Assembly: GCA_903936705.1 (NCBI GenBank)
Contig: CAIZWN010000073.1
Coordinates: 26,061-90,060, forward strand
DNA length: 64,000 nt
Direction of reading: 5' to 3'
Source: an uncultured Myxococcales bacterium
Lineage (GTDB): Bacteria > Myxococcota_A > UBA9042 > DTJE01
Shown here one piece after another: positions 36,168-45,025 of the stretch. A program made the position numbers and the translations under genes. Position 1 is the stretch's first letter, and each line of letters opens with the position of its first letter. Below the pieces are notes generated by a model, which was not told where the DNA came from, did no database searches, and saw nothing but the letters and a program-made list of their open reading frames with translations.

Positions 36168-37253
36168 ATGTCTAATCGCATGCTGTTCGATCCGACGACC
36201 CTGGGAACCCTGGTTCTGAACAACCGCCTGGTTATGGCTCCGATGACGCGCAGCCGCGTCGTGGAAGCCGGCACCCCCAACGACCTGATGGCCGAATACT
36301 ATGGTCAGCGGGCGACTGGGGGCCTGATCATCACCGAGGGCGTATCGCCGTCGCCCAACGGCACCGGTTATGCGCGCATCCCGGGGCTTTGGAGCGACGC
36401 CCAGATCGCCGGATGGAGTAACGTGACTGACGCCGTCCATTCCCGCGGAGGGAAGATATTCGTTCAGTTGATGCACACGGGTCGTGTGGGCCATCCCCTG
36501 AACCTGCCGGCAGGAGGCGAAGTGCTGGCTCCCAGCGCGGTGGCGGCCGACGGGCAGATGTGGACCGATTCCCAGGGAATGCAGCCGCATCCCGTACCTC
36601 GGGCCATGACGGACGCCGAGGTAGTCGCGGCCATCGGGGAGTTCGTGCAGGCGGCGCGCAACGCGATTGCAGCCGGGTTTGATGGGGTCGAGTTGCACGG
36701 GGCGAACGGCTATCTGATCGAGCAGTTCCTCAGCCCCACGACGAACCAGCGCACCGACAGGTGGGGCGGTTCAATCGAGCGGCGCCAGGAGTTCCTGATG
36801 GCCATTGCCGCGGCCGTGGCGGACGCCATTGGTGGGTCCAGGGTCGGGATCCGTCTGTCGCCATACGGGGTCAACGCCGGCATGAAATCGTACCCCGAGA
36901 TTGACGAAAACTACCTGACATTGGTGGCGCGTCTCGCTGCCACCGGCGTTCAGTACCTGCATCTTGTGGACCATTCCGCCATGGGGGCGCCAGAGGTTCC
37001 AGCCGCCCTGAAGGCACAGTTGCGCACGGCCTGGCCCAGGACGTTCATCGTGGCAGGCGGCTTCGACGCGGCATCCGCCGAGGCGGCTCTGGTCCAGGGC
37101 CAGGGCGACCTGGTCGCATTCGGGCGGCAGTTCCTGGCCAACCCCGACCTGGTGGCTCGGCTGGAAGGCGGGCTGCCCCTGAACGCCCCGGACTTCGGCA
37201 CCTTCTATACCCCGGGACCGAAGGGTTACACGGACTACCCGATGGCGACCTGA
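36168..37253 (+). CDS. NADH:flavin oxidoreductase (Old Yellow Enzyme / N-ethylmaleimide reductase family)
   Basis: The motifs are LVMAPMTRSR, GGLIITEG and HGANGYLIEQFL, in a TIM-barrel OYE architecture. AGGAG lies 7 nt before the ATG. Confidence 0.85.
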   Translation: MSNRMLFDPTTLGTLVLNNRLVMAPMTRSRVVEAGTPNDLMAEYYGQRATGGLIITEGVSPSPNGTGYARIPGLWSDAQIAGWSNVTDAVHSRGGKIFVQLMHTGRVGHPLNLPAGGEVLAPSAVAADGQMWTDSQGMQPHPVPRAMTDAEVVAAIGEFVQAARNAIAAGFDGVELHGANGYLIEQFLSPTTNQRTDRWGGSIERRQEFLMAIAAAVADAIGGSRVGIRLSPYGVNAGMKSYPEIDENYLTLVARLAATGVQYLHLVDHSAMGAPEVPAALKAQLRTAWPRTFIVAGGFDAASAEAALVQGQGDLVAFGRQFLANPDLVARLEGGLPLNAPDFGTFYTPGPKGYTDYPMAT

Positions 37254-37295
37254 CGGGAGGGACTGGCATTCTTCAAGCGTTCCCAAGCGCTGTGG

Positions 37296-38861
37296 TCACT
37301 TCGCAGTCGTGACCGGCAGCGACTCCACGCGAGGTCGTAGATCGACGGTCCGGCAAAGATTCCGGGCTGCAATTTCGCGGAAGGATTCCGACACTCGAGA
37401 GTCATCCGCAAGGTGACCCCAGAAATCGATGGCTGCATCCAGAACCGAACCAGCGACGTCCGCGACCTCGGGGCCCAGGATCAGCAGAACGTGGTCCATT
37501 CGGGGCAGTTCGCCTTGCCGCGGATGGTAGTGCATTGGCAGCATGTCGTAGACGGGCGCCAGCGTCGTCACACGTTGGCCGTCCAGCAGGAAGGCGAGGT
37601 TGCCGAAGTGCATATCAGTGTTCCCGATCAGGCGGCCAAAAGTCTCCAGCCAGCGCACTCGGCGCACCACGCTACCTGGAACGATGCCCCCGGCGGCAAG
37701 AATTTCGACCGCAGCCGTCCAGCTGGTCAGGTTCGTGCCAGCGAACTGGGCATCCAGGAACTCCAGTGCGACCTGTCCTGTGCGGTGGGAAACCTGGTCG
37801 CGGTCGAAACGTTCGATCTCCAGGAAAAGGCGGTTTCCGGCCGGCAAGATCGAGGCAATGGGAACATTGAAGCCGTTCTTTCCAACAGTCGAAAGTGCAA
37901 CCTGTTCGGCAACCAGCAGGTCAGCGACGCGGCGTCCAACCGATTCGTCTGTCGGGGGCGAGAATTTGACCAGCACGGGAGTCACGTGGTCTCCATCGCG
38001 CCGCGTGGCCAGGAACTTCGGTTGTTCTCCCGCTGCCGAGGACCCTGCCGTGCCGAACGAAAGCAGATCCGACGCGATCGCAGGATAGCGATCTTGGCGT
38101 TCAGTCACATCGACTGAATTCGACGGCCGCTGAACCTCCTCAAGGAATCGGGAACACGCTTCGTCTCCGATGATGAACGCGCCGGGCTGGTCCCATCCGT
38201 AGCGCGATGCGAACCGCAGCGCATGATCGGCGGACCACATTCGGATGTCGGATGGCAGGCCCAGTTCTGGGTGTCGCTGCGGCACCAACCGCCCTAGGAA
38301 CCCGGACGGTCGTGCGCCCTGCAGAAACCATGGGAGGTCATCGAAGAAACGGCCGCCATCGTCAGAGGCGAAGTAGAAGCCGCGTTCCCCGATGGCGCTG
38401 AGGCTGCCGAATCGACGCGGTTTTTCCCCGCGAGGGCGGACTTCGTAGATGACCAGCGGTTGTCGTACTCCCGGAATTTCTCGCGCCAGGCCGTATCGTC
38501 TATCGCGAGTGCGCCCGAACGAAAGCACTTCGCCACGAAGTGATGAGACCAGTCGCGAGAACGTTGGCTGGCTGACGCCAAGTTCGCGTACCAACACGGA
38601 CGGATTTACCAAGCCCCTGCGGGCCAGCAATGAAAACAGACGCTCCCGAAGGTGCGCTCTTGGGTCGTTAGGTTCCACGTAGATATGAATAGAATGCTGA
38701 CGATAAAAAAGCAAGGATTCGCCAGAGGTTAGTTCGATACAATTGGTATTGGTGAATGAATACGTGAATGGTTGCTTGTGGGTAATGGCATCTGCGCTCC
38801 TCAATCCAGCGGTCAAGTGCCTTCTGGTAGCTTTAGGTTCGCGATATTCGATGGTCCACAA
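37296..38861 (-). CDS. HipA-family Ser/Thr kinase with a fused N-terminal HTH (HipH/YjjJ-like); start uncertain
   Basis: The HTH is LVRELGVSQPTFSRLV. The HipA core is GEQPKFLA...KFSP...IGNTDMHFGNLAFL, with the D-x-H-x-x-N catalytic loop. A GTG near 38678 is an alternative start. The 5-prime end lies in an AT-richer stretch. Confidence 0.7.
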   Translation of the reverse strand: MWTIEYREPKATRRHLTAGLRSADAITHKQPFTYSFTNTNCIELTSGESLLFYRQHSIHIYVEPNDPRAHLRERLFSLLARRGLVNPSVLVRELGVSQPTFSRLVSSLRGEVLSFGRTRDRRYGLAREIPGVRQPLVIYEVRPRGEKPRRFGSLSAIGERGFYFASDDGGRFFDDLPWFLQGARPSGFLGRLVPQRHPELGLPSDIRMWSADHALRFASRYGWDQPGAFIIGDEACSRFLEEVQRPSNSVDVTERQDRYPAIASDLLSFGTAGSSAAGEQPKFLATRRDGDHVTPVLVKFSPPTDESVGRRVADLLVAEQVALSTVGKNGFNVPIASILPAGNRLFLEIERFDRDQVSHRTGQVALEFLDAQFAGTNLTSWTAAVEILAAGGIVPGSVVRRVRWLETFGRLIGNTDMHFGNLAFLLDGQRVTTLAPVYDMLPMHYHPRQGELPRMDHVLLILGPEVADVAGSVLDAAIDFWGHLADDSRVSESFREIAARNLCRTVDLRPRVESLPVTTAK

Positions 38862-38865
38862 GAAC

Positions 38866-39855
38866 CTACCGAAGGAACACGTTCTCGTTGTGCCACTGCA
38901 ACAGTTCAGCAGACGGCCTCAGGTCCGGTGCCGAGGGGACGTTGACCTGCCGGTCTCGCATTGCGTAGTAGGCAACGCCGTTTTCCCAATCCTCGCGCAG
39001 GCGGCCGCTGACCCTAAACTCGTGGTCGGGAGTGATCGTCACATAGCCATGGTCGAACAATCGGTGCACATCCGACCGCAGGAGGATGCCATTCCGAATA
39101 TCGTTGGGGCCGTCCTTTGCGAACGGCTTGATATGCGCCGCTTCCAGCACCGGGAGGGAATGTTCGCCCGTGACAGCGCATGCACCGTAGACATCAGTCA
39201 CTACCGCGCGAAACGTGCCCTGACCCAGACGTGGCTTAACCAGAATGGGCTCTCCGTATCGGGCTGGACGATCGAGGAGTTGAGGGGTGACGGTCAGCCG
39301 AGCCTCAGCCATGCATTCGTCCCAGAGTCGATGTCCCTCCCCGGAGGACAGGTCATAACCTTTCGTTGTGACGATGTTTGGCGACCAGTCGGACGGTTGT
39401 GCAATCCATCGTTCCTTCTCGAAGAACACAGGCTGCGACAGCAGGATGCATCCGATCGGGCCATGTGGGTCGCCCCCGTTTCGAACGCGGTACTCGGCCG
39501 TGCGACGACGGAGGCTTTCTTCCGTCGGGTTCCCGTTTGCCTGGCCGAAAAGCTCCCAGGCTCGCCAGTCCGGTATGACGACGTAGCGGGCAAAAAAGCC
39601 GAAGCCCACAATGACGTTGTGTGGCGCCTTCAACTTGAAGAAGAACGGTTCGCCCGGCACGAGAGCGCTAAAGGCTCCTCCCGACGGTTTCCAAAAGTTG
39701 ATCTCCTCGAGCCCGGTCCTGTTTTCAGCAATAGATTGGCGCTGACGCTCCAGCAAGAATCGGTACCATTCGAAGTCGGTGTTGCCGACACTGCCACGCA
39801 CAGAATTTCTCCGAAATACTAGACGGGAAGTATCCCAGACGGCTGTGGGAGTCAA
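38866..39855 (-). CDS. HNH endonuclease family protein (HNH_2 type, restriction-like) with an uncharacterised N-terminal domain
   Basis: The C-terminus GACAVTGEHSLPVLEAAHIKPF...NGILLRSDVHRLFDHGYVTI matches the HNH_2 motif (C..TG...AAHI.P...NG..L..D.H..FD.G). Confidence 0.65.
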   Translation of the reverse strand: MTPTAVWDTSRLVFRRNSVRGSVGNTDFEWYRFLLERQRQSIAENRTGLEEINFWKPSGGAFSALVPGEPFFFKLKAPHNVIVGFGFFARYVVIPDWRAWELFGQANGNPTEESLRRRTAEYRVRNGGDPHGPIGCILLSQPVFFEKERWIAQPSDWSPNIVTTKGYDLSSGEGHRLWDECMAEARLTVTPQLLDRPARYGEPILVKPRLGQGTFRAVVTDVYGACAVTGEHSLPVLEAAHIKPFAKDGPNDIRNGILLRSDVHRLFDHGYVTITPDHEFRVSGRLREDWENGVAYYAMRDRQVNVPSAPDLRPSAELLQWHNENVFLR

Positions 39856-39907
39856 GTCTCGCGCGCGGTCGTAGAGCGGAATAGAATCGTGTCTTGGGAG
39901 GTGTCCG

Positions 39908-40261
39908 ATGACGGAACTGGATCATGTCCTGGCCAGGTTGAGAACCTTCGTGGCGGAACGCGATTGGGACCAGTTTCATGACCCTAAGAATCTCACGATG
40001 GCGGTCGCGTCCGAAGCTGGCGAATTGAGCGCCTTGCTCCGGTGGGTGCGAGGCGAGGATTCTGACGCGTTCGTGCGATTGCCTGAAAACCGCCGAGCGG
40101 TCGAGGACGAGGTGGCCGACGTGGGGATCTGTTTGCTGCTGTTGTGCGAACGCGCCAGTATTTCCCTGCCGGACGCGATGATGCGCAAGATCGAGGCGAA
40201 CGAGCGAAAATACCCGGTCGAACAGGCGAAGGGGCGAGCTGAGAAACCGGTTCAGAGGTGA
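39908..40261 (+). CDS. MazG-like nucleotide pyrophosphohydrolase (single-domain, 117 aa)
   Basis: The motifs RDWDQFH...EAGEL and EDEVADV..CLLLL match the MazG/NTP-PPase all-alpha fold EE/E..D metal motifs. GGGAGG lies 7 nt before the ATG. Confidence 0.7.
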   Translation: MTELDHVLARLRTFVAERDWDQFHDPKNLTMAVASEAGELSALLRWVRGEDSDAFVRLPENRRAVEDEVADVGICLLLLCERASISLPDAMMRKIEANERKYPVEQAKGRAEKPVQR

Positions 40262-40331
40262 TTGAACGGTGATGTTTCAGAAGGGAGTGGAAGCATTCCC
40301 GGTGAAGTTGCTGGCTGTTTTGGAGGAACTT

Positions 40332-40865
40332 ATGCTGGTTCGTGTAGGGTTCGCGATCCTGTTGGGAGCGGCGCTTTGGGGTTGCGATGCCGTAAACGGG
40401 ACGGGCGATTTGCCGGATGCCGCGGACGTGCCGGTGGACAGTGCCGATACCGCCGACGTTGCATTGCCCCCGGGTTGCTGCCGGGTCGATTCCGATTGTT
40501 CCGCGGTGGCGGGTGAGGGCAGGACCTGCGCCTTCGGGGCCTTTTCCGGGGCGGGTGAGGCAGGGGCCTGCAGGGCGATCCCGGCGACTGGCCGTTGCTG
40601 GGACGACGGAGACTGCCTGGTAAACGAGGGTTGCAAGGGAGCTTCCTTCTGTCCCTGCGACGAGGGCTGCGGCCAGGCCGAGGCTTTGGGTACCTGCAAG
40701 CCCCTGGCCGGTCCAGGCGAATCCTGCGGTTCAGAAGGCGCCAACTGCCGCCCCGACCTGGCGTGCTGCTATCCTTGCGGTGAGGGAGGCTGCGACTGGC
40801 AATGCGACGTGCCCTGCGACGCGACGAAACCCGGCTGTCTTGATGGGTGCATGCAGTACCCGTGA
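40332..40865 (+). CDS. Small cysteine-rich lipoprotein (177 aa)
   Basis: The lipobox is ALWGC. About 26 Cys are present. GGAGGA lies 4 nt before the ATG at 40332. Confidence 0.5.
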   Translation: MLVRVGFAILLGAALWGCDAVNGTGDLPDAADVPVDSADTADVALPPGCCRVDSDCSAVAGEGRTCAFGAFSGAGEAGACRAIPATGRCWDDGDCLVNEGCKGASFCPCDEGCGQAEALGTCKPLAGPGESCGSEGANCRPDLACCYPCGEGGCDWQCDVPCDATKPGCLDGCMQYP

Positions 40866-42382: not shown

Positions 42383-43765
42383 TCAGAACGTGTACGACAG
42401 CGCCCAGCACAGCAGGAACACCACAGGCGTGTGGACCATCAGTTGCAGGATGGAAAAGCCCGCCAGTTCGCGGGCTCGGACGTTCAGCAGACCCATCAGG
42501 GGCAGCATCCAGAACGGATTGATCAGGTTAGGGAGTGCCTCGGCGGCGTTGTAGATCTGGACGACCCAGCCTGCGTCCACGCCGTGGGCATTCGCAGCGG
42601 TCATCAAATATGGCGCCTCGATGACCCACTTGCCGCCGCCCGACGGGACGAACATGCCCAGGACCGCCGAGTAGGCGGCCGTGAACAGCGGGAACGTGTC
42701 CCGGGTGGTTACCGCGGTGAACGCCCCGGCCAGCGTGGCCGACAGGGCGGTCCCGGTCAGGATCCCGAAGACGCCGCCGTAGAACGGGAACTGGACCAGG
42801 ACCCCACCAGTGGCCGGGATGGCGCCCGACACCGCTCTCAGGAACGACCGCGGCCGCCCGTGCAACACCAGACCCAGCATCAGGAAACCCAGGTTGTAGG
42901 TGTTCAGGTCCAGCGCCGCCATGCCGCCCTTGTCCATGAAGACCACGACGAGGTATGCGATGCCCAGTGCCGCGACGGCCAGGGCCAGGAAGGGGCTGGT
43001 TTCCAGGCGCTCCCCGGGCGTCGTGGGGCGGTCCACAGCGACCGTCGGTGGTTCCAACCTGACGCCCAGGTCGGACGCGGTGCGGATGCGGGCTTCGGCG
43101 GGGTATGACAACCACGCGACCACCACCGACACGACCAGCAACGTCACGATCAGCACCAGGTTCTGCCACAGAAACAGGGTTCGGGTCAGCGGCAGGACTC
43201 CGGTCACATCCTTGAGTGCGGCGGGCAGGGATTCGGGTGTGGCCATCATCAGGGCGGCCGAGGACGACAATCCCAGGGCCCAGATGCTGCCCAGGCCCAG
43301 GTATGCCGCGGCTGCCAGCGCACGGAAGTCCACGCGCCGCTGACGGGCGGCCAGTTCCTTCACCAGCAGGCCGCTGAAGATCAGCGAAAAACCCCACGAC
43401 AGCAGGGAGGCCAGCATGGCGAAGAGGGCGGTGAAGGCCACGGCGCCCCGGGGCGTGCTGGGAATCCGGGCAATCTGGCGAATCAGCCAATGCACGGGGG
43501 GCGACACCGCGACCACATAGCCGCCGACGATGACCATGGCCATCTGCATCGTGAAGGGGACCAGCGACCAGAAGCCCTTGCCGAAGGCTTCAGCCATGTC
43601 GATTGGACCCGCGCCCACGGCCAGCCCGCCACAGAAAACGATGACCACCGCGGCCAGCGCGAACACGAAGGCGTCGGGAAACCAGCGTTCGCTCCAGTCG
43701 GCCAGGCCGGCGCCCCAGCGCGAAAGCAAGCCGTCCGAAGGCGCCGTGTGTGCGTGTTTTGTCAT
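42383..43765 (-). CDS. atoE: Short-chain fatty acid transporter (AtoE family)
   Basis: It is a 460-aa polytopic membrane protein whose N-terminal and overall pattern matches AtoE/TIGR00366. The start is set at MTKHAH. Confidence 0.7.
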   Translation of the reverse strand: MTKHAHTAPSDGLLSRWGAGLADWSERWFPDAFVFALAAVVIVFCGGLAVGAGPIDMAEAFGKGFWSLVPFTMQMAMVIVGGYVVAVSPPVHWLIRQIARIPSTPRGAVAFTALFAMLASLLSWGFSLIFSGLLVKELAARQRRVDFRALAAAAYLGLGSIWALGLSSSAALMMATPESLPAALKDVTGVLPLTRTLFLWQNLVLIVTLLVVSVVVAWLSYPAEARIRTASDLGVRLEPPTVAVDRPTTPGERLETSPFLALAVAALGIAYLVVVFMDKGGMAALDLNTYNLGFLMLGLVLHGRPRSFLRAVSGAIPATGGVLVQFPFYGGVFGILTGTALSATLAGAFTAVTTRDTFPLFTAAYSAVLGMFVPSGGGKWVIEAPYLMTAANAHGVDAGWVVQIYNAAEALPNLINPFWMLPLMGLLNVRARELAGFSILQLMVHTPVVFLLCWALSYTF

Positions 43766-43866
43766 GGGCAGGTTATACCACCGCACAAAAGTGGCGGCCA
43801 AGGGGCGGGCGGGGGAGGGATCATGCCTTTATGGCTGCCACCATGGTCCCCTTTTCAATAGTCAGT

Positions 43867-44445
43867 TCAATTCAGACTGGCCCGTCGCAGCAGTTCTTCA
43901 ATGCTGAGGAGTTTGTCCGGATAAAGCTTGTTCCATGTCAATGCAAACGACTGCGCATGAAGCCGAAAAGAGCCCAGGGCTCTGGGCAGGGTCTCGATGA
44001 AGCCATCAACGAACCGATCGCGGTCGAAGCCATCAAGCTTGACCAATCTGAAGATATCCTCGCTGTCCTTCGCCCCCATCCGAAACATCTTCATTATCGC
44101 AAGGTCCTCGGGACATGGAACGGACACATGAAGTCGTCCCTTCGGTCCCTGATAAACCTTCCTGGCATGCTCCAGCCAGTCCTCCGGAAGAAACGCATCG
44201 AAAATTGCGGACCGCAAATTGATGTCAATCGGGGGTCGTCTTGCGCTGGCGATGGTCCGCATCACCAACAGCCCATCCTGGGTCAGTGTATCAATGTCGC
44301 GGGTTGGGTGAGGCTTGTCGGGGCAAAGCAACTGAACCGCTGCCCCCCCTACGAATACGACGTGCGCTTCGGTTTTCAACGTCTTGTCGACCATCCGTAG
44401 GAAATCCTTCAGTTCCCTGAGTGATAGTTGCGCCCACTCCAACAT
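43867..44445 (-). CDS. Nucleotidyltransferase-fold protein (GG...DxD), possible toxin/antitoxin-type NTase; the start overlaps the upstream ORF
   Basis: HVVFVGGAAVQLL......TRDIDTL fits the minimal NTase motif hG[GS]x(9-13)DxD. Confidence 0.4.
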   Translation of the reverse strand: MLEWAQLSLRELKDFLRMVDKTLKTEAHVVFVGGAAVQLLCPDKPHPTRDIDTLTQDGLLVMRTIASARRPPIDINLRSAIFDAFLPEDWLEHARKVYQGPKGRLHVSVPCPEDLAIMKMFRMGAKDSEDIFRLVKLDGFDRDRFVDGFIETLPRALGSFRLHAQSFALTWNKLYPDKLLSIEELLRRASLN

Positions 44446-45025
44446 TGCGAAGATGCCTCCTAAAAAGGTCGGTGCTAAAGCTGCCGAAGACCCTGTGCCT
44501 GCATAGTGGCTCAGGTGTGGATGCTACCGATCGTTCAACGTCGGCCAATGGCCCTCCAAAGAAGAATCCCTGGTAAGGATCCTCAGTTTGACCCCAGGAT
44601 TCAGCAAGCCTGCCCAAGTTGTCGTTGGAGGTCAGTTCTGCTGCCATTGCGGCGGCGGCGGCCAGCAAACGCATCTCCAGGTCGGACTTGCAGCGCAACC
44701 GCGCCAGGGAAGTCGGATCGAGCGCGGCCAAGGCGGCAGGGAGAACCTCAAAGGCGCGTGCATCCTTCTCAGCGGCAGCTCGGTGCACGAGTGCCAGTAC
44801 TTCGGCAATTTGGGCTGTCGGATCATCCTCGCGTGGCAAGAGATCGGTTGGGTCAACCTCGATGGCCCGGGCAACCTTTCGGACTCCTTGGCTTAGTGGG
44901 TCGAAGTCGGTTTGGAGCATCTTGTAGATGGCCTGACGGGAAAGTCCCGTTCGTTCGGCCAAGTCCAGGACGCTGAGTTGTCGGCTCTCCATCAACTCTT
45001 GCAGCCGAACCGAGAACCCGCTCAT
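44291..45025 (-). CDS. XRE-family HTH transcriptional regulator; the C-terminal 60 codons overlap the next ORF and look non-coding (possible frameshift or fusion)
   Basis: The HTH is LSVLDLAERTGLSRQAIYKML. GGAGGTG lies 4 nt before the ATG at 45025. Confidence 0.5.
   Translation of the reverse strand: MSGFSVRLQELMESRQLSVLDLAERTGLSRQAIYKMLQTDFDPLSQGVRKVARAIEVDPTDLLPREDDPTAQIAEVLALVHRAAAEKDARAFEVLPAALAALDPTSLARLRCKSDLEMRLLAAAAAMAAELTSNDNLGRLAESWGQTEDPYQGFFFGGPLADVERSVASTPEPLCRHRVFGSFSTDLFRRHLRNVGVGATITQGTEGFPTDGRQDVENRSARRIRRGGSGSVALPRQASPNPRH

Follow-up and report, generated by a model that had tools for sequence, protein, structure and literature searches.

Three neighboring genes of an uncultured myxococcal bacterium encode a nuclease, a HipA-family kinase and a MazG-like pyrophosphohydrolase. 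Do they form one defense or toxin system, as the original prediction proposed, or are they neighbors of separate kinds? The stretch of DNA analyzed here, called the window, is 64,000 nucleotides long, and the islet occupies its positions 37296–40261, with the kinase and nuclease genes on the reverse strand and mazG on the forward strand. The three predicted ORFs and their domain assignments were recovered, Pfam matching HNH_2, HipA_C and MazG-like. The islet combines known kinds of gene in a mosaic. The explanation that we favor, with modest confidence, is that it holds two unrelated units: a restriction-type cassette of nuclease and mazG, which would combine modified-base reading with nucleotide sanitation, and an independent hipH gene.

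Base composition and surroundings of the islet

The islet had been described as lower in GC than surroundings of 70% GC, which was taken to suggest horizontal acquisition. The measured GC of these surroundings is 63–65%. At the gene level the islet is indeed mildly lower in GC (0.59–0.62, against 0.64 in the flanks), but not significantly so: its GC3 values of 0.65–0.73 lie at z of about −0.4 to −1.6 relative to the window (mean 0.75, sd 0.063), and similar GC and GC3 recur in many genes across the window's first half. Neither gene GC nor GC3 thus sets the islet significantly apart from the window as foreign DNA, and the compositional case for horizontal acquisition is weak, with the exception of the 187-bp spacer that carries the hipH promoter. 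This spacer (38679..38865) has a GC content of 44.4% and accounts for the AT-rich stretch that had been noticed at about 38650–38900.

A strain lacking the islet was sought through its identical OYE neighbor, and 16 of 16 contigs proved to derive from the same genome, essentially without differences (no contig has more than one mismatch), the islet being present wherever these contigs extend to its position. OYE homologues were dropped as a synteny anchor, their conservation across phyla being too high. Within about 5 kb, the Pfam-assigned genes encode NAGidase, an OYE reductase, HipH, MazG, a BNR protein, a SCFA transporter and DUF6036; no methyltransferase is found among them, and two ORFs, a Cys-rich gene (40269–40865) and 44588–44896, have no Pfam match. 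A tRNA-Gly call at 42979–43072 was rejected as spurious, at 94 nt and inside a transporter ORF.

The nuclease and its sensor-like domain

The nuclease gene (38866..39801, reverse strand) encodes 311 residues from a GTG start at 39801, preceded 6 nt upstream by a GGAGA Shine-Dalgarno sequence. Gene callers open at this same GTG, and homologues of 303–321 aa fit it. The 329-aa ORF originally proposed starts at TTG 39855, a codon that is part of a conserved TTGACT box, and was rejected; the HNH_2 and restriction-type assignment stands, but at the shorter length.

The C-terminal HNH_2 (beta-beta-alpha-Me) domain (residues ~191–311; 38869..39231, reverse strand) follows a low-confidence linker (residues 171–190) and matches Pfam HNH_2 at E 9e-15. 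Its closest relative is the HNH domain of VcaM4I (6yex; E 2.5e-9), in an alignment spanning AAHIKP...RNG...DVH. Residues H214, H223, N237 and H246 are unchanged across 50 homologues, and they include the catalytic His/Asn/His set (H223, N237, H246). Matches to NF045808 and to the HNH models of PADLOC are confined to this part of the protein.

The N-terminal domain (residues ~1–170; 39292..39801, reverse strand) has no Pfam match, PUA, EVE, SRA and YTH models included. It contains many invariant aromatic residues, among them W12, F36, W37, F55, W82, F85, F126 and F127. An AlphaFold (AF2) model built on a 50-sequence alignment reached a pLDDT of 90.7 (a single-sequence run of the 329-aa ORF gave only 32.6), and in this confident model the domain is a PUA-superfamily pseudobarrel of ASCH/EVE/YTH-like type, a fold of the modified-base-reader kind. 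Its nearest structural neighbors are the ASCH proteins ZmASCH, a ribonuclease, and YqfB, an ac4C amidohydrolase, rather than SRA or EVE domains; these ASCH proteins are RNA-binding or nucleoside-acting, not proven readers of modified bases in DNA.

Type IV, modification-dependent restriction enzymes have this architecture, a PUA-superfamily domain joined to HNH_2, and the finding of no cognate methyltransferase among the Pfam-assigned genes nearby agrees with this class. The 311-aa protein is thus a candidate type IV enzyme, presumably dependent on DNA modification. VcaM4I itself belongs with TspA15I to the EVE–HNH type IV endonucleases (PDB 6yex; PMC7897488, PMC6765204), while TagI and ScoA3IV (PDB 6ghs) read through an SRA domain, in contrast to the ASCH/EVE-like domain seen here. 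Compared by description only, the closest parallel is ScoA3V (Sco5330), a “distantly PUA-like”–HNH enzyme with 6mA-stimulated nicking (PMC6765204): in both, the HNH enzyme carries an N-domain that is only remotely PUA-like, in a clade apart from EVE and SRA. Close homologues of ScoA3V have been reported only in Actinomycetales (PMC6765204), whereas the present family spans many phyla, with 5388 matches at E<=1e-10 (>5,000 proteins at 90% clustering). Its neighbors across the family include an HIT-PLD-helicase “mREase_IV” (E 2e-108), PDC-S41/DUF2075, a type ISP R-M enzyme, AbiE-type TA genes and integrases. Plasmid-borne matches lie in defense or mobile contexts, and none of them has a MazG.

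mazG and its association with the nuclease

Divergent from the nuclease, mazG (39908..40261, forward strand) encodes a 117-aa, DCTPP1-like all-alpha (MazG-like) dNTP pyrophosphohydrolase. The small divergent MazG-like protein of the original prediction is upheld by a score of 33.4 bits against Pfam PF12643 (gathering cutoff 27) and by an E-value of 8.5e-22 to mouse and human DCTPP1 (2a3q, 6sqw). The latter match covers the whole catalytic core of this mammalian all-alpha dCTP pyrophosphatase, also known as RS21-C6 (PDB 2a3q, 2oig, 6sqw). The catalytic, metal-binding ExxE...ExxD motif is whole, with E36, E39, E68 and D71 invariant. In comparison with DCTPP1, the pocket retains W20, F23, H24, W46 and Y102, and mapping on that enzyme shows that the equivalents of its Trp47/Trp73 sandwich, His51, Phe41/50 and Tyr129 are kept. 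Two DCTPP1 residues are changed (His38 to Leu11 and Tyr102 to Cys75), so that the substrate is possibly not a cytosine nucleotide. DCTPP1 clears 5-modified dCTPs and so prevents their misincorporation (PMC13291643, PMC7162842); unlike it, the protein studied here is bacterial, has only 117 residues with Leu and Cys at these two positions, and shows genomic linkage to nuclease and helicase genes, its activity being predicted from sequence.

The intergenic region between the two genes (39802..39907) holds both ribosome-binding sites, a direct repeat ATACTAGACGG/ATCCCAGACGG at 39816–39842 and the TTGACT box (39855–39850), which is shared with the intergenic region of locus L164 in an alignment of only two sequences, and hence weak evidence. 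A host-like, GC-rich secreted-protein gene lies 7 nt 3′ of mazG, which could be merely the first gene of a secreted-protein operon.

Is the adjacency of mazG and nuclease anything more than accessory-gene clustering? Were it not, the three genes would be unrelated neighbors, the nuclease standing alone and MazG serving as an ordinary house-cleaning dNTP pyrophosphatase. We judge this unlikely, though it has real points in its favor. Type IV enzymes of such architecture act alone (PMC6765204), about 90% of nuclease loci are without MazG, and so are the solitary relatives at 57% identity. Many MazG relatives occur in housekeeping-looking contexts, for instance beside rlmJ-like genes (12/80 loci, by sequence motif rather than by family scan), and mazG here is 7 nt from a host-like gene. 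Against it stands the conservation of the pair. A mazG gene lies divergently adjacent to the nucleases of 99%, 78% and 77% identity, which are all the closest relatives with enough contig sequence, and it is retained there although the flanks otherwise differ. The survey of the nuclease family took in 80 species-level loci and 1.17 Mb, 0.75 Mb of it farther flank. Eight loci have a MazG no more than 2 kb from the nuclease, six of them within 125 bp; these are the only MazG matches in the survey, and the farther flank yielded none. The clustering has a binomial p of 1e-4 and, if one background copy is assumed for every 3 Mb, a Poisson p of 8e-13. The original description of MazG as a recurrent neighbor of such genes is borne out in this family.

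The eight loci are annotated as Elusimicrobiota, Acidobacteria, Binatia, Beta- and Deltaproteobacteria, Actinomycetota and Solirubrobacteraceae; their gene order varies and their nucleases are scattered over the nuclease tree, yet mazG is always followed directly by a DUF2075/Schlafen-type (Schlafen-group-3) helicase gene, in the same mazG→DUF2075 operon. In an NJ tree of the 110-aa MazG proteins, used qualitatively only because it is poorly resolved, the MazG of the window groups with other HNH- or DUF2075-linked MazGs. No DUF2075 helicase or remnant of one was found in the window. The ASCH-like nearest folds, the presence of MazG in only ~10% of loci, the solitary 57% relatives, the housekeeping-looking contexts of the MazG family, the absence of DUF2075 here, the distance of 7 nt to a host-like gene and the changed His38 and Tyr102 were all counted against reading the pair as a restriction cassette.

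A second alternative, which we consider quite improbable, has the PUA-like–HNH protein acting independently of DNA modification. Its ASCH-like domain would then be the RNA- or nucleoside-binding guide of a nuclease that serves, for example, on RNA/DNA hybrids, in repair, or as a nucleotide-sensing abortive-infection effector, binding a free modified nucleotide in the manner of PUA-Cal-HAD. In favor of this are the N-domain's best structural match (ASCH, not SRA or EVE) and the PUA domains reported to sense free m6-dAMP and to partner MazG-like enzymes (PMC12871103); nucleotide sensing would make MazG a natural signal remover.

An independent hipH gene with its own promoter

The third gene (hipH, or yjjJ, type; 37296..38678, reverse strand) encodes 460 aa from GTG 38678. 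This start, suggested by the original prediction, occupies the same alignment column in 12 of 14 distinct homologues, of 452–466 aa. The kinase matches Pfam HipA_C (E 2e-20) and, over model positions 9–437 of 446, the NCBIfam model PRK09775 “HipA family toxin YjjJ,” an extent that confirms the predicted HTH–HipA fusion. The score of 391.1 bits falls just under the equivalog cutoff of 401, so the protein is named here as a member of the HipH clade and not as a YjjJ equivalog; it is a distant, probably Myxococcota-type, member. As in E. coli YjjJ/HipH (HipA-homologous kinase clade X; PMC8262856, PMC9948734), an N-terminal HTH (about 38538–38636, reverse strand) is fused to a HipT-like Ser/Thr kinase core (about 37479–38042, reverse strand). 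The extension of ~100 aa contains a conserved “ELGISQPTFSRL” helix-turn-helix segment, the MarR_2 match there being below cutoff (E 0.004). All four kinase motifs are present and invariant in the homologue alignment, namely the Gly-rich loop GSSAAGEQPKF with its two Ser, the VKF lysine, NTDMHxGN and YDMLP. The clade is described as monocistronic (PMC8262856), and no hipB or hipS adjoins the gene here, in line with the predicted lack of a separate antitoxin: upstream is the 187-bp promoter spacer and downstream a convergent gene. Close relatives are likewise solitary.

The spacer is the GC minimum of the 64-kb window, whose seven lowest 200-bp windows all lie within 38576–38925. It contains, on the hipH strand, the predicted candidate promoter: a −35-like TTGCTT (38714–38709), N17 and a −10-like TATTCA (38691–38686) that ends 7 nt before GTG 38678, a leaderless-like arrangement. 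The match to the sigma-70 consensus is only 6/12, and a consensus scan of 37100–40400 reported no promoter; phylogenetic footprinting, however, showed TTGCTT and TATTCA, with their spacing to the start codon, to be conserved among five hipH loci of different genomes. In these five contexts all boxes of the spacer are invariant or nearly so, including the (C/T)CATTCA repeats (38771–38764, 38760–38752 and 38693–38685, reverse strand), and the promoter thus travels with the gene. HipH would then be transcribed alone from a conserved, probably leaderless, promoter, with the repeated ATTCA boxes as candidate operators for its own HTH, which suggests autoregulation. This promoter type is an observation of the present analysis.

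How does this bear on the trio? HipH occurs in 0/80 species-level nuclease loci, is lacking in both the 78%- and the 77%-identical loci, which keep MazG, and has five unrelated contexts in its five closest relatives examined, none with HNH or MazG. PADLOC-DB 2.0 likewise recovers no multi-gene system, its only hits being generic HNH/restriction-enzyme models on the HNH domain, with noise for the kinase (E about 0.009) and no match for MazG. A single three-gene system, with the kinase for example regulating or backing up the nuclease, is therefore largely refuted by non-conservation and very improbable: the three adjoin each other and have a slightly lower GC than their flanks, and a HipA-family gene of any clade does lie near nuclease or MazG in only 3 of about 160 loci (1.7–5 kb away in two, and in the L105 metagenome contig as a canonical hipBA pair beside mazG and a degraded copy of this nuclease), but the L105 kinase is of a different clade with its own HipB, and hipH is separated from the nuclease by its own conserved promoter, in a 187-bp spacer more AT-rich than any other part of the window. 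hipH is an independent monocistronic unit, here simply a neighbor of the nuclease–mazG pair.

A possible division of labor and its meaning

How might the pair work as the restriction cassette that we favor? The N-domain would dock on invading DNA and inspect a flipped modified base in its aromatic pocket, and the HNH domain would then nick or cut close by, a methyltransferase not being required. The DCTPP1-like MazG may hydrolyze dCTP-type, probably base-modified, deoxynucleotides to the monophosphate. Modified nucleotides would thereby be prevented from being built into the host chromosome, and the nuclease would spare self; MazG might also starve phages that build their DNA from modified dCTP. 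Elsewhere the helicase encoded directly after mazG would complete the pair, a gene that is missing here.

Precedents exist for each half of such a combination. McaZI-type DUF3427 MDREs beside DUF2075 NTPases (PMC6765204) join a modified-base-dependent nuclease to a DUF2075 helicase, and the PUA–MazG–HAD variants of PUA-Cal-HAD (PMC12871103) join a PUA sensor to a MazG-like phosphoesterase. Both involve other nuclease or sensor families, and neither has a mazG→DUF2075 operon with a PUA-like–HNH gene. In the literature library searched, no publication names both MazG and DUF2075, and no earlier description of the association was found. It is possible, though we hold it only tentatively and as less than probable, that the DCTPP1-like mazG→DUF2075 operon and the PUA-like–HNH nuclease form an undescribed, widespread multi-gene anti-phage system, of which the window has a reduced two-gene form, coupling modified-dNTP sanitation or depletion to modification-dependent cleavage. 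If so, the pyrophosphatase would provide self-protection (immunity) for a type IV enzyme, or act as a second effector against phages with modified dCTP.

Type IV restriction enzymes are usually regarded as solitary genes. To our knowledge, little attention has been paid to how the host DNA is spared once salvage returns modified nucleotides to it. That a DCTPP1-type sanitizer recurrently accompanies a modified-base-reader nuclease, together with a Schlafen-type helicase, points to a testable answer, and the association is a candidate module for the catalogue of defense systems. The specificity of the nuclease may be useful for epigenetic tools, since its sensor domain has no Pfam model in a large family. 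As for the third gene, the control of antitoxin-less HipH kinases is stated to be unknown in the HipH literature, and the conserved promoter with its repeated ATTCA boxes offers a concrete handle on it.

Gene starts, composition and occurrence of the islet

The three open reading frames (ORFs) of the original prediction are present as it described them. Two lie on the minus strand, a HipA-family kinase (hipH; maximal ORF 37296-38861) and an HNH nuclease (maximal ORF 38866-39855), and one lies on the plus strand, encoding a MazG-like protein (39908-40261). The nuclease had been taken to be a 329-aa protein, but its homologues measure 303-321 aa and gene callers give 311 aa on identical contigs, with a GTG start at 39801 and a GGAGA 6 nt upstream. 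The longer frame opens with the TTG of a TTGACT box, at 39855, which is kept in the intergenic region of L164, a locus with a 77%-identical nuclease. The DNA from this box to the start of the nuclease gene, part of the spacer shared with the divergent mazG, carries a direct repeat, ATACTAGACGG / ATCCCAGACGG, at 39816-39842 with 16-nt spacing. Since 12 of 14 distinct kinase homologues begin in the alignment column that V62 of the long ORF (GTG 38678) occupies, the kinase has 460 aa (452-466 aa in its relatives), and the start proposed for it earlier was the right one.

The islet had also been described as a lower-GC stretch in surroundings of 70% GC, a contrast taken to suggest horizontal acquisition. 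Its AT-rich spacer is real, but the 7-kb flanks have 63-64% GC and the window as a whole 63.8%. The three genes themselves have 59.6-61.7% GC, and their GC3 (0.65-0.73) lies at the low end of the window distribution (mean 0.75, sd 0.063) yet inside it, so a foreign composition is not borne out. The sole striking compositional feature is the 187-bp spacer at 38679-38865 (44.4% GC), and all seven of the lowest-GC 200-bp windows in the 64 kb are located at 38576-38925. A second low-GC spot (0.546) consists of a DUF6036/AbiEii-like nucleotidyltransferase gene (43867-44445, minus strand; Pfam E 1.5e-12) and a divergent 102-aa ORF with no family match (44588-44896, plus strand), and could represent a further small islet of toxin-antitoxin or defence genes. 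The tRNA-Gly(CCC) called by ARAGORN at 42979-43072 is probably a false positive: it is 94 nt long and sits inside a short-chain fatty acid transporter ORF (42383-43801, minus strand).

An identical OYE neighbour was found on sixteen contigs from several samples, all 99.98-100% identical to the window with at most one mismatch per contig. These contigs carry the islet wherever they are long enough to reach it, and no islet-free variant was seen among the sixteen. Independent short-read contigs of the same genome (L172-L174) break off at 37530 or, in one case, precisely at 37295, just ahead of the hipH stop codon. Such ends at the left edge of the islet may hint at assembly-graph branching and hence at strain variation, though they prove nothing.

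The PUA-like–HNH nuclease and its MazG neighbour

In the nuclease, the Pfam HNH_2 match (E 9e-15) is confined to residues 226-274. An AlphaFold model built on 50 homologues (pLDDT 90.7) divides the protein into an N-domain (residues 1-170) and an HNH domain (191-311), joined by a floppy linker (171-190). The HNH part aligns by sequence with VcaM4I (E 2.5e-9), and H223, N237 and H246 are invariant in the 50-homologue alignment. So are numerous aromatic residues of the N-domain (W12, F36, W37, F55, W82, F85, F126 and F127), a pattern consistent with a base-binding pocket. The family is large, with 5388 proteins at E<=1e-10; the N-domain alone yields 1024 clusters at 50% identity under the same threshold and is nearly always N-terminal in proteins of about 310 aa. 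Fusion of a PUA-superfamily reader to HNH is an established architecture of modification-dependent restriction endonucleases (PMC6765204, PMC7897488). From this architecture and the genomic context we infer that the nuclease is modification-dependent. None of the neighbouring genes was identified as a methyltransferase; two ORFs close by lack a family assignment. Because the nearest structural relatives of the N-domain are ASCH proteins, sensing of RNA, a nucleoside or a free nucleotide is a live alternative to the reading of modified DNA. PUA proteins that sense free m6-dAMP have been reported, with rare variants carrying a MazG-like effector (PMC12871103).

The divergent MazG–nuclease pair is partly conserved, and not at random. 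It is retained in relatives with nucleases 99%, 78% and 77% identical, within otherwise dissimilar neighbourhoods: one has a DUF2075 helicase and HigB, another a second HNH_2 paralogue and a HIT gene. The latter is L164 (2066-4419), where the paralogue (309 aa) follows the nuclease and precedes a stand-alone HIT hydrolase gene; tblastn found nothing in the N-terminal region of the paralogue that matches the window nuclease. HIT-PLD-helicase type IV enzymes, which likewise begin with a HIT domain, adjoin the nuclease family in about 10 loci. Among species-level nuclease loci (the best 80 of 568 confirmed stretches), MazG was found in eight, always within 2 kb of the nuclease and in six cases within 125 bp, with none in the remaining 0.75 Mb of flank (binomial p 1e-4; Poisson p 8e-13, assuming a background of one copy per 3 Mb). 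In this respect the original prediction is supported: MazG recurs beside this nuclease family. Three gene orders occur among the eight loci, which are spread across the nuclease tree and by annotation belong to Elusimicrobiota, Acidobacteria, Binatia, Beta- and Deltaproteobacteria, Actinomycetota and Solirubrobacteraceae. The nuclease also recurs beside a HIT-PLD-helicase (PADLOC “mREase_IV,” E 2e-108), a type ISP restriction-modification enzyme, AbiE-type toxin-antitoxin genes and integrases, all of them defence-island company.

In all eight loci, mazG is followed at a gap of at most about 20 nt by a gene for a DUF2075/Schlafen-group-3 helicase (Pfam E 5e-88), and in five more nuclease loci a DUF2075 or PDC-S41 protein is present but MazG is not. 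A reverse survey of 80 metagenome loci starting from MazG recovered the mazG–DUF2075 order in 13 and this nuclease family in two. An rlmJ-like gene, recognized by its sequence motif, adjoined MazG in 12, and a different recurring set of genes was present in 11; both contexts look like housekeeping, and therefore only part of the MazG family is defence-linked. In a poorly resolved neighbour-joining tree of the MazG proteins, the window MazG groups with other HNH- or DUF2075-linked members. The tight two-gene operon (L008, L011, L013, L014, L020, L061, L063, L068; L085, L095, L098, L102, L116, L123, L128, L129, L138, L147, L151, L159, L163) is found across many phyla, whether or not the PUA-like–HNH gene is present, and some of its helicases carry a C-terminal Peptidase_S24 domain. 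PADLOC returned no full-length match for it: MazG had none, and the helicase only weak partial ones to PDC-S41, AbiO and Nhi. The window contains neither a DUF2075 gene nor a remnant of one. The position after mazG, held by the helicase in other genomes, is here held by a gene for a 198-aa Cys-rich secreted protein of host-like GC, across a 7-nt gap (40262-40268).

The MazG-like product (Pfam 33.4 bits, cutoff 27) is closely related to mammalian DCTPP1/RS21-C6, with an E value of 8.5e-22 across residues 12-113. Its metal-binding residues E36, E39, E68 and D71 are invariant among nuclease-linked relatives. When the described DCTPP1 pocket (PMC13291643) is mapped onto the alignment, equivalents of the Trp47/Trp73 sandwich, His51, Phe41, Phe50 and Tyr129 are retained, whereas His38 and Tyr102 are replaced by Leu11 and Cys75.

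The hipH kinase and its promoter

The kinase (Pfam HipA_C, E 2e-20) belongs to the HipH/YjjJ clade, matching positions 9-437 of 446 of the NCBIfam YjjJ model at 391 bits against a cutoff of 401. The helix-turn-helix segment ELGVSQPTFSRL precedes its HipT-like core, and the Gly-rich loop GSSAAGEQPKF, the VKF lysine, NTDMHFGN and YDMLP are invariant among homologues. The clade is defined as monocistronic, with no linked antitoxin and control unknown (PMC8262856).

Alignment of the regions upstream of hipH in five genomes (window 38679-38790, minus strand; L081 and L082, 5860-6000; L179, 2860-3000; L181, 2697-2837) revealed invariant blocks within otherwise unconserved DNA: TTGCTT/TTGACT, 17 nt, then T(A)TTCAT, which ends 7 nt before the ATG/GTG. 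The promoter proposed in the original prediction (TTGCTT-N17-TATTCA) agrees with the consensus at only 6 of 12 positions and was not picked up by a consensus scan, yet the invariance of the blocks across the five loci gives it phylogenetic support. Its geometry suggests a leaderless mRNA. Two (C/T)CATTCA boxes further upstream are also common to the five loci, and the ATTCA box recurs within the −10 region. These boxes are putative operators for the HipH helix-turn-helix and may form an autoregulatory set.

A probable mosaic islet

Nuclease, kinase and MazG do not form a conserved trio. By tblastn, HipH was found in none of the best 80 of 568 nuclease stretches and is absent from the 78%- and 77%-identical nuclease loci. 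Five close HipH relatives (65-76% identity) occupy five unrelated contexts: AbiEi with unknown genes, a STAND NTPase, a Ser/Thr kinase with PEGA, MutS with an amidohydrolase, and a penicillin amidase with sulfur transport. Only three of about 160 loci have a HipA-family gene, whatever its clade, in the vicinity of the nuclease or MazG. One of these, L105 (147-2573), has a canonical hipBA pair, a nuclease remnant and then mazG; in the 148-aa remnant the PUA-like domain is fused straight to the C-terminal tail, the HNH domain being deleted. We read this arrangement as clustering inside a defence or toxin-antitoxin island. Nor did PADLOC identify a known defence system: nothing significant matched the kinase or MazG, and the HNH domain alone was hit, by generic restriction-enzyme models.

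The islet is best read as a mosaic of an unrelated, self-contained hipH and a restriction-type cassette, the latter pairing the PUA-like–HNH nuclease with a DCTPP1-like partner, without the helicase in the window. PUA–HNH type IV enzymes, HipH kinases and DCTPP1-like enzymes have each been described before. In McaZI, which belongs to a different nuclease family, a modification-dependent endonuclease has been observed to adjoin a DUF2075 NTPase (PMC6765204), and a defensive role of MazG domains has been predicted in the literature, not validated. Our literature search found no paper containing both “MazG” and “DUF2075,” nor one tying MazG to modification-dependent restriction; as far as could be checked, the recurrent mazG(–DUF2075)–PUA-like–HNH module is therefore an undescribed variant. 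DCTPP1 hydrolyses dCTP and C5-modified dCTPs, preventing their misincorporation (PMC13291643). Homology and gene linkage suggest that the MazG partner would likewise remove modified dCTP-type nucleotides, thereby avoiding self-restriction or starving phages.
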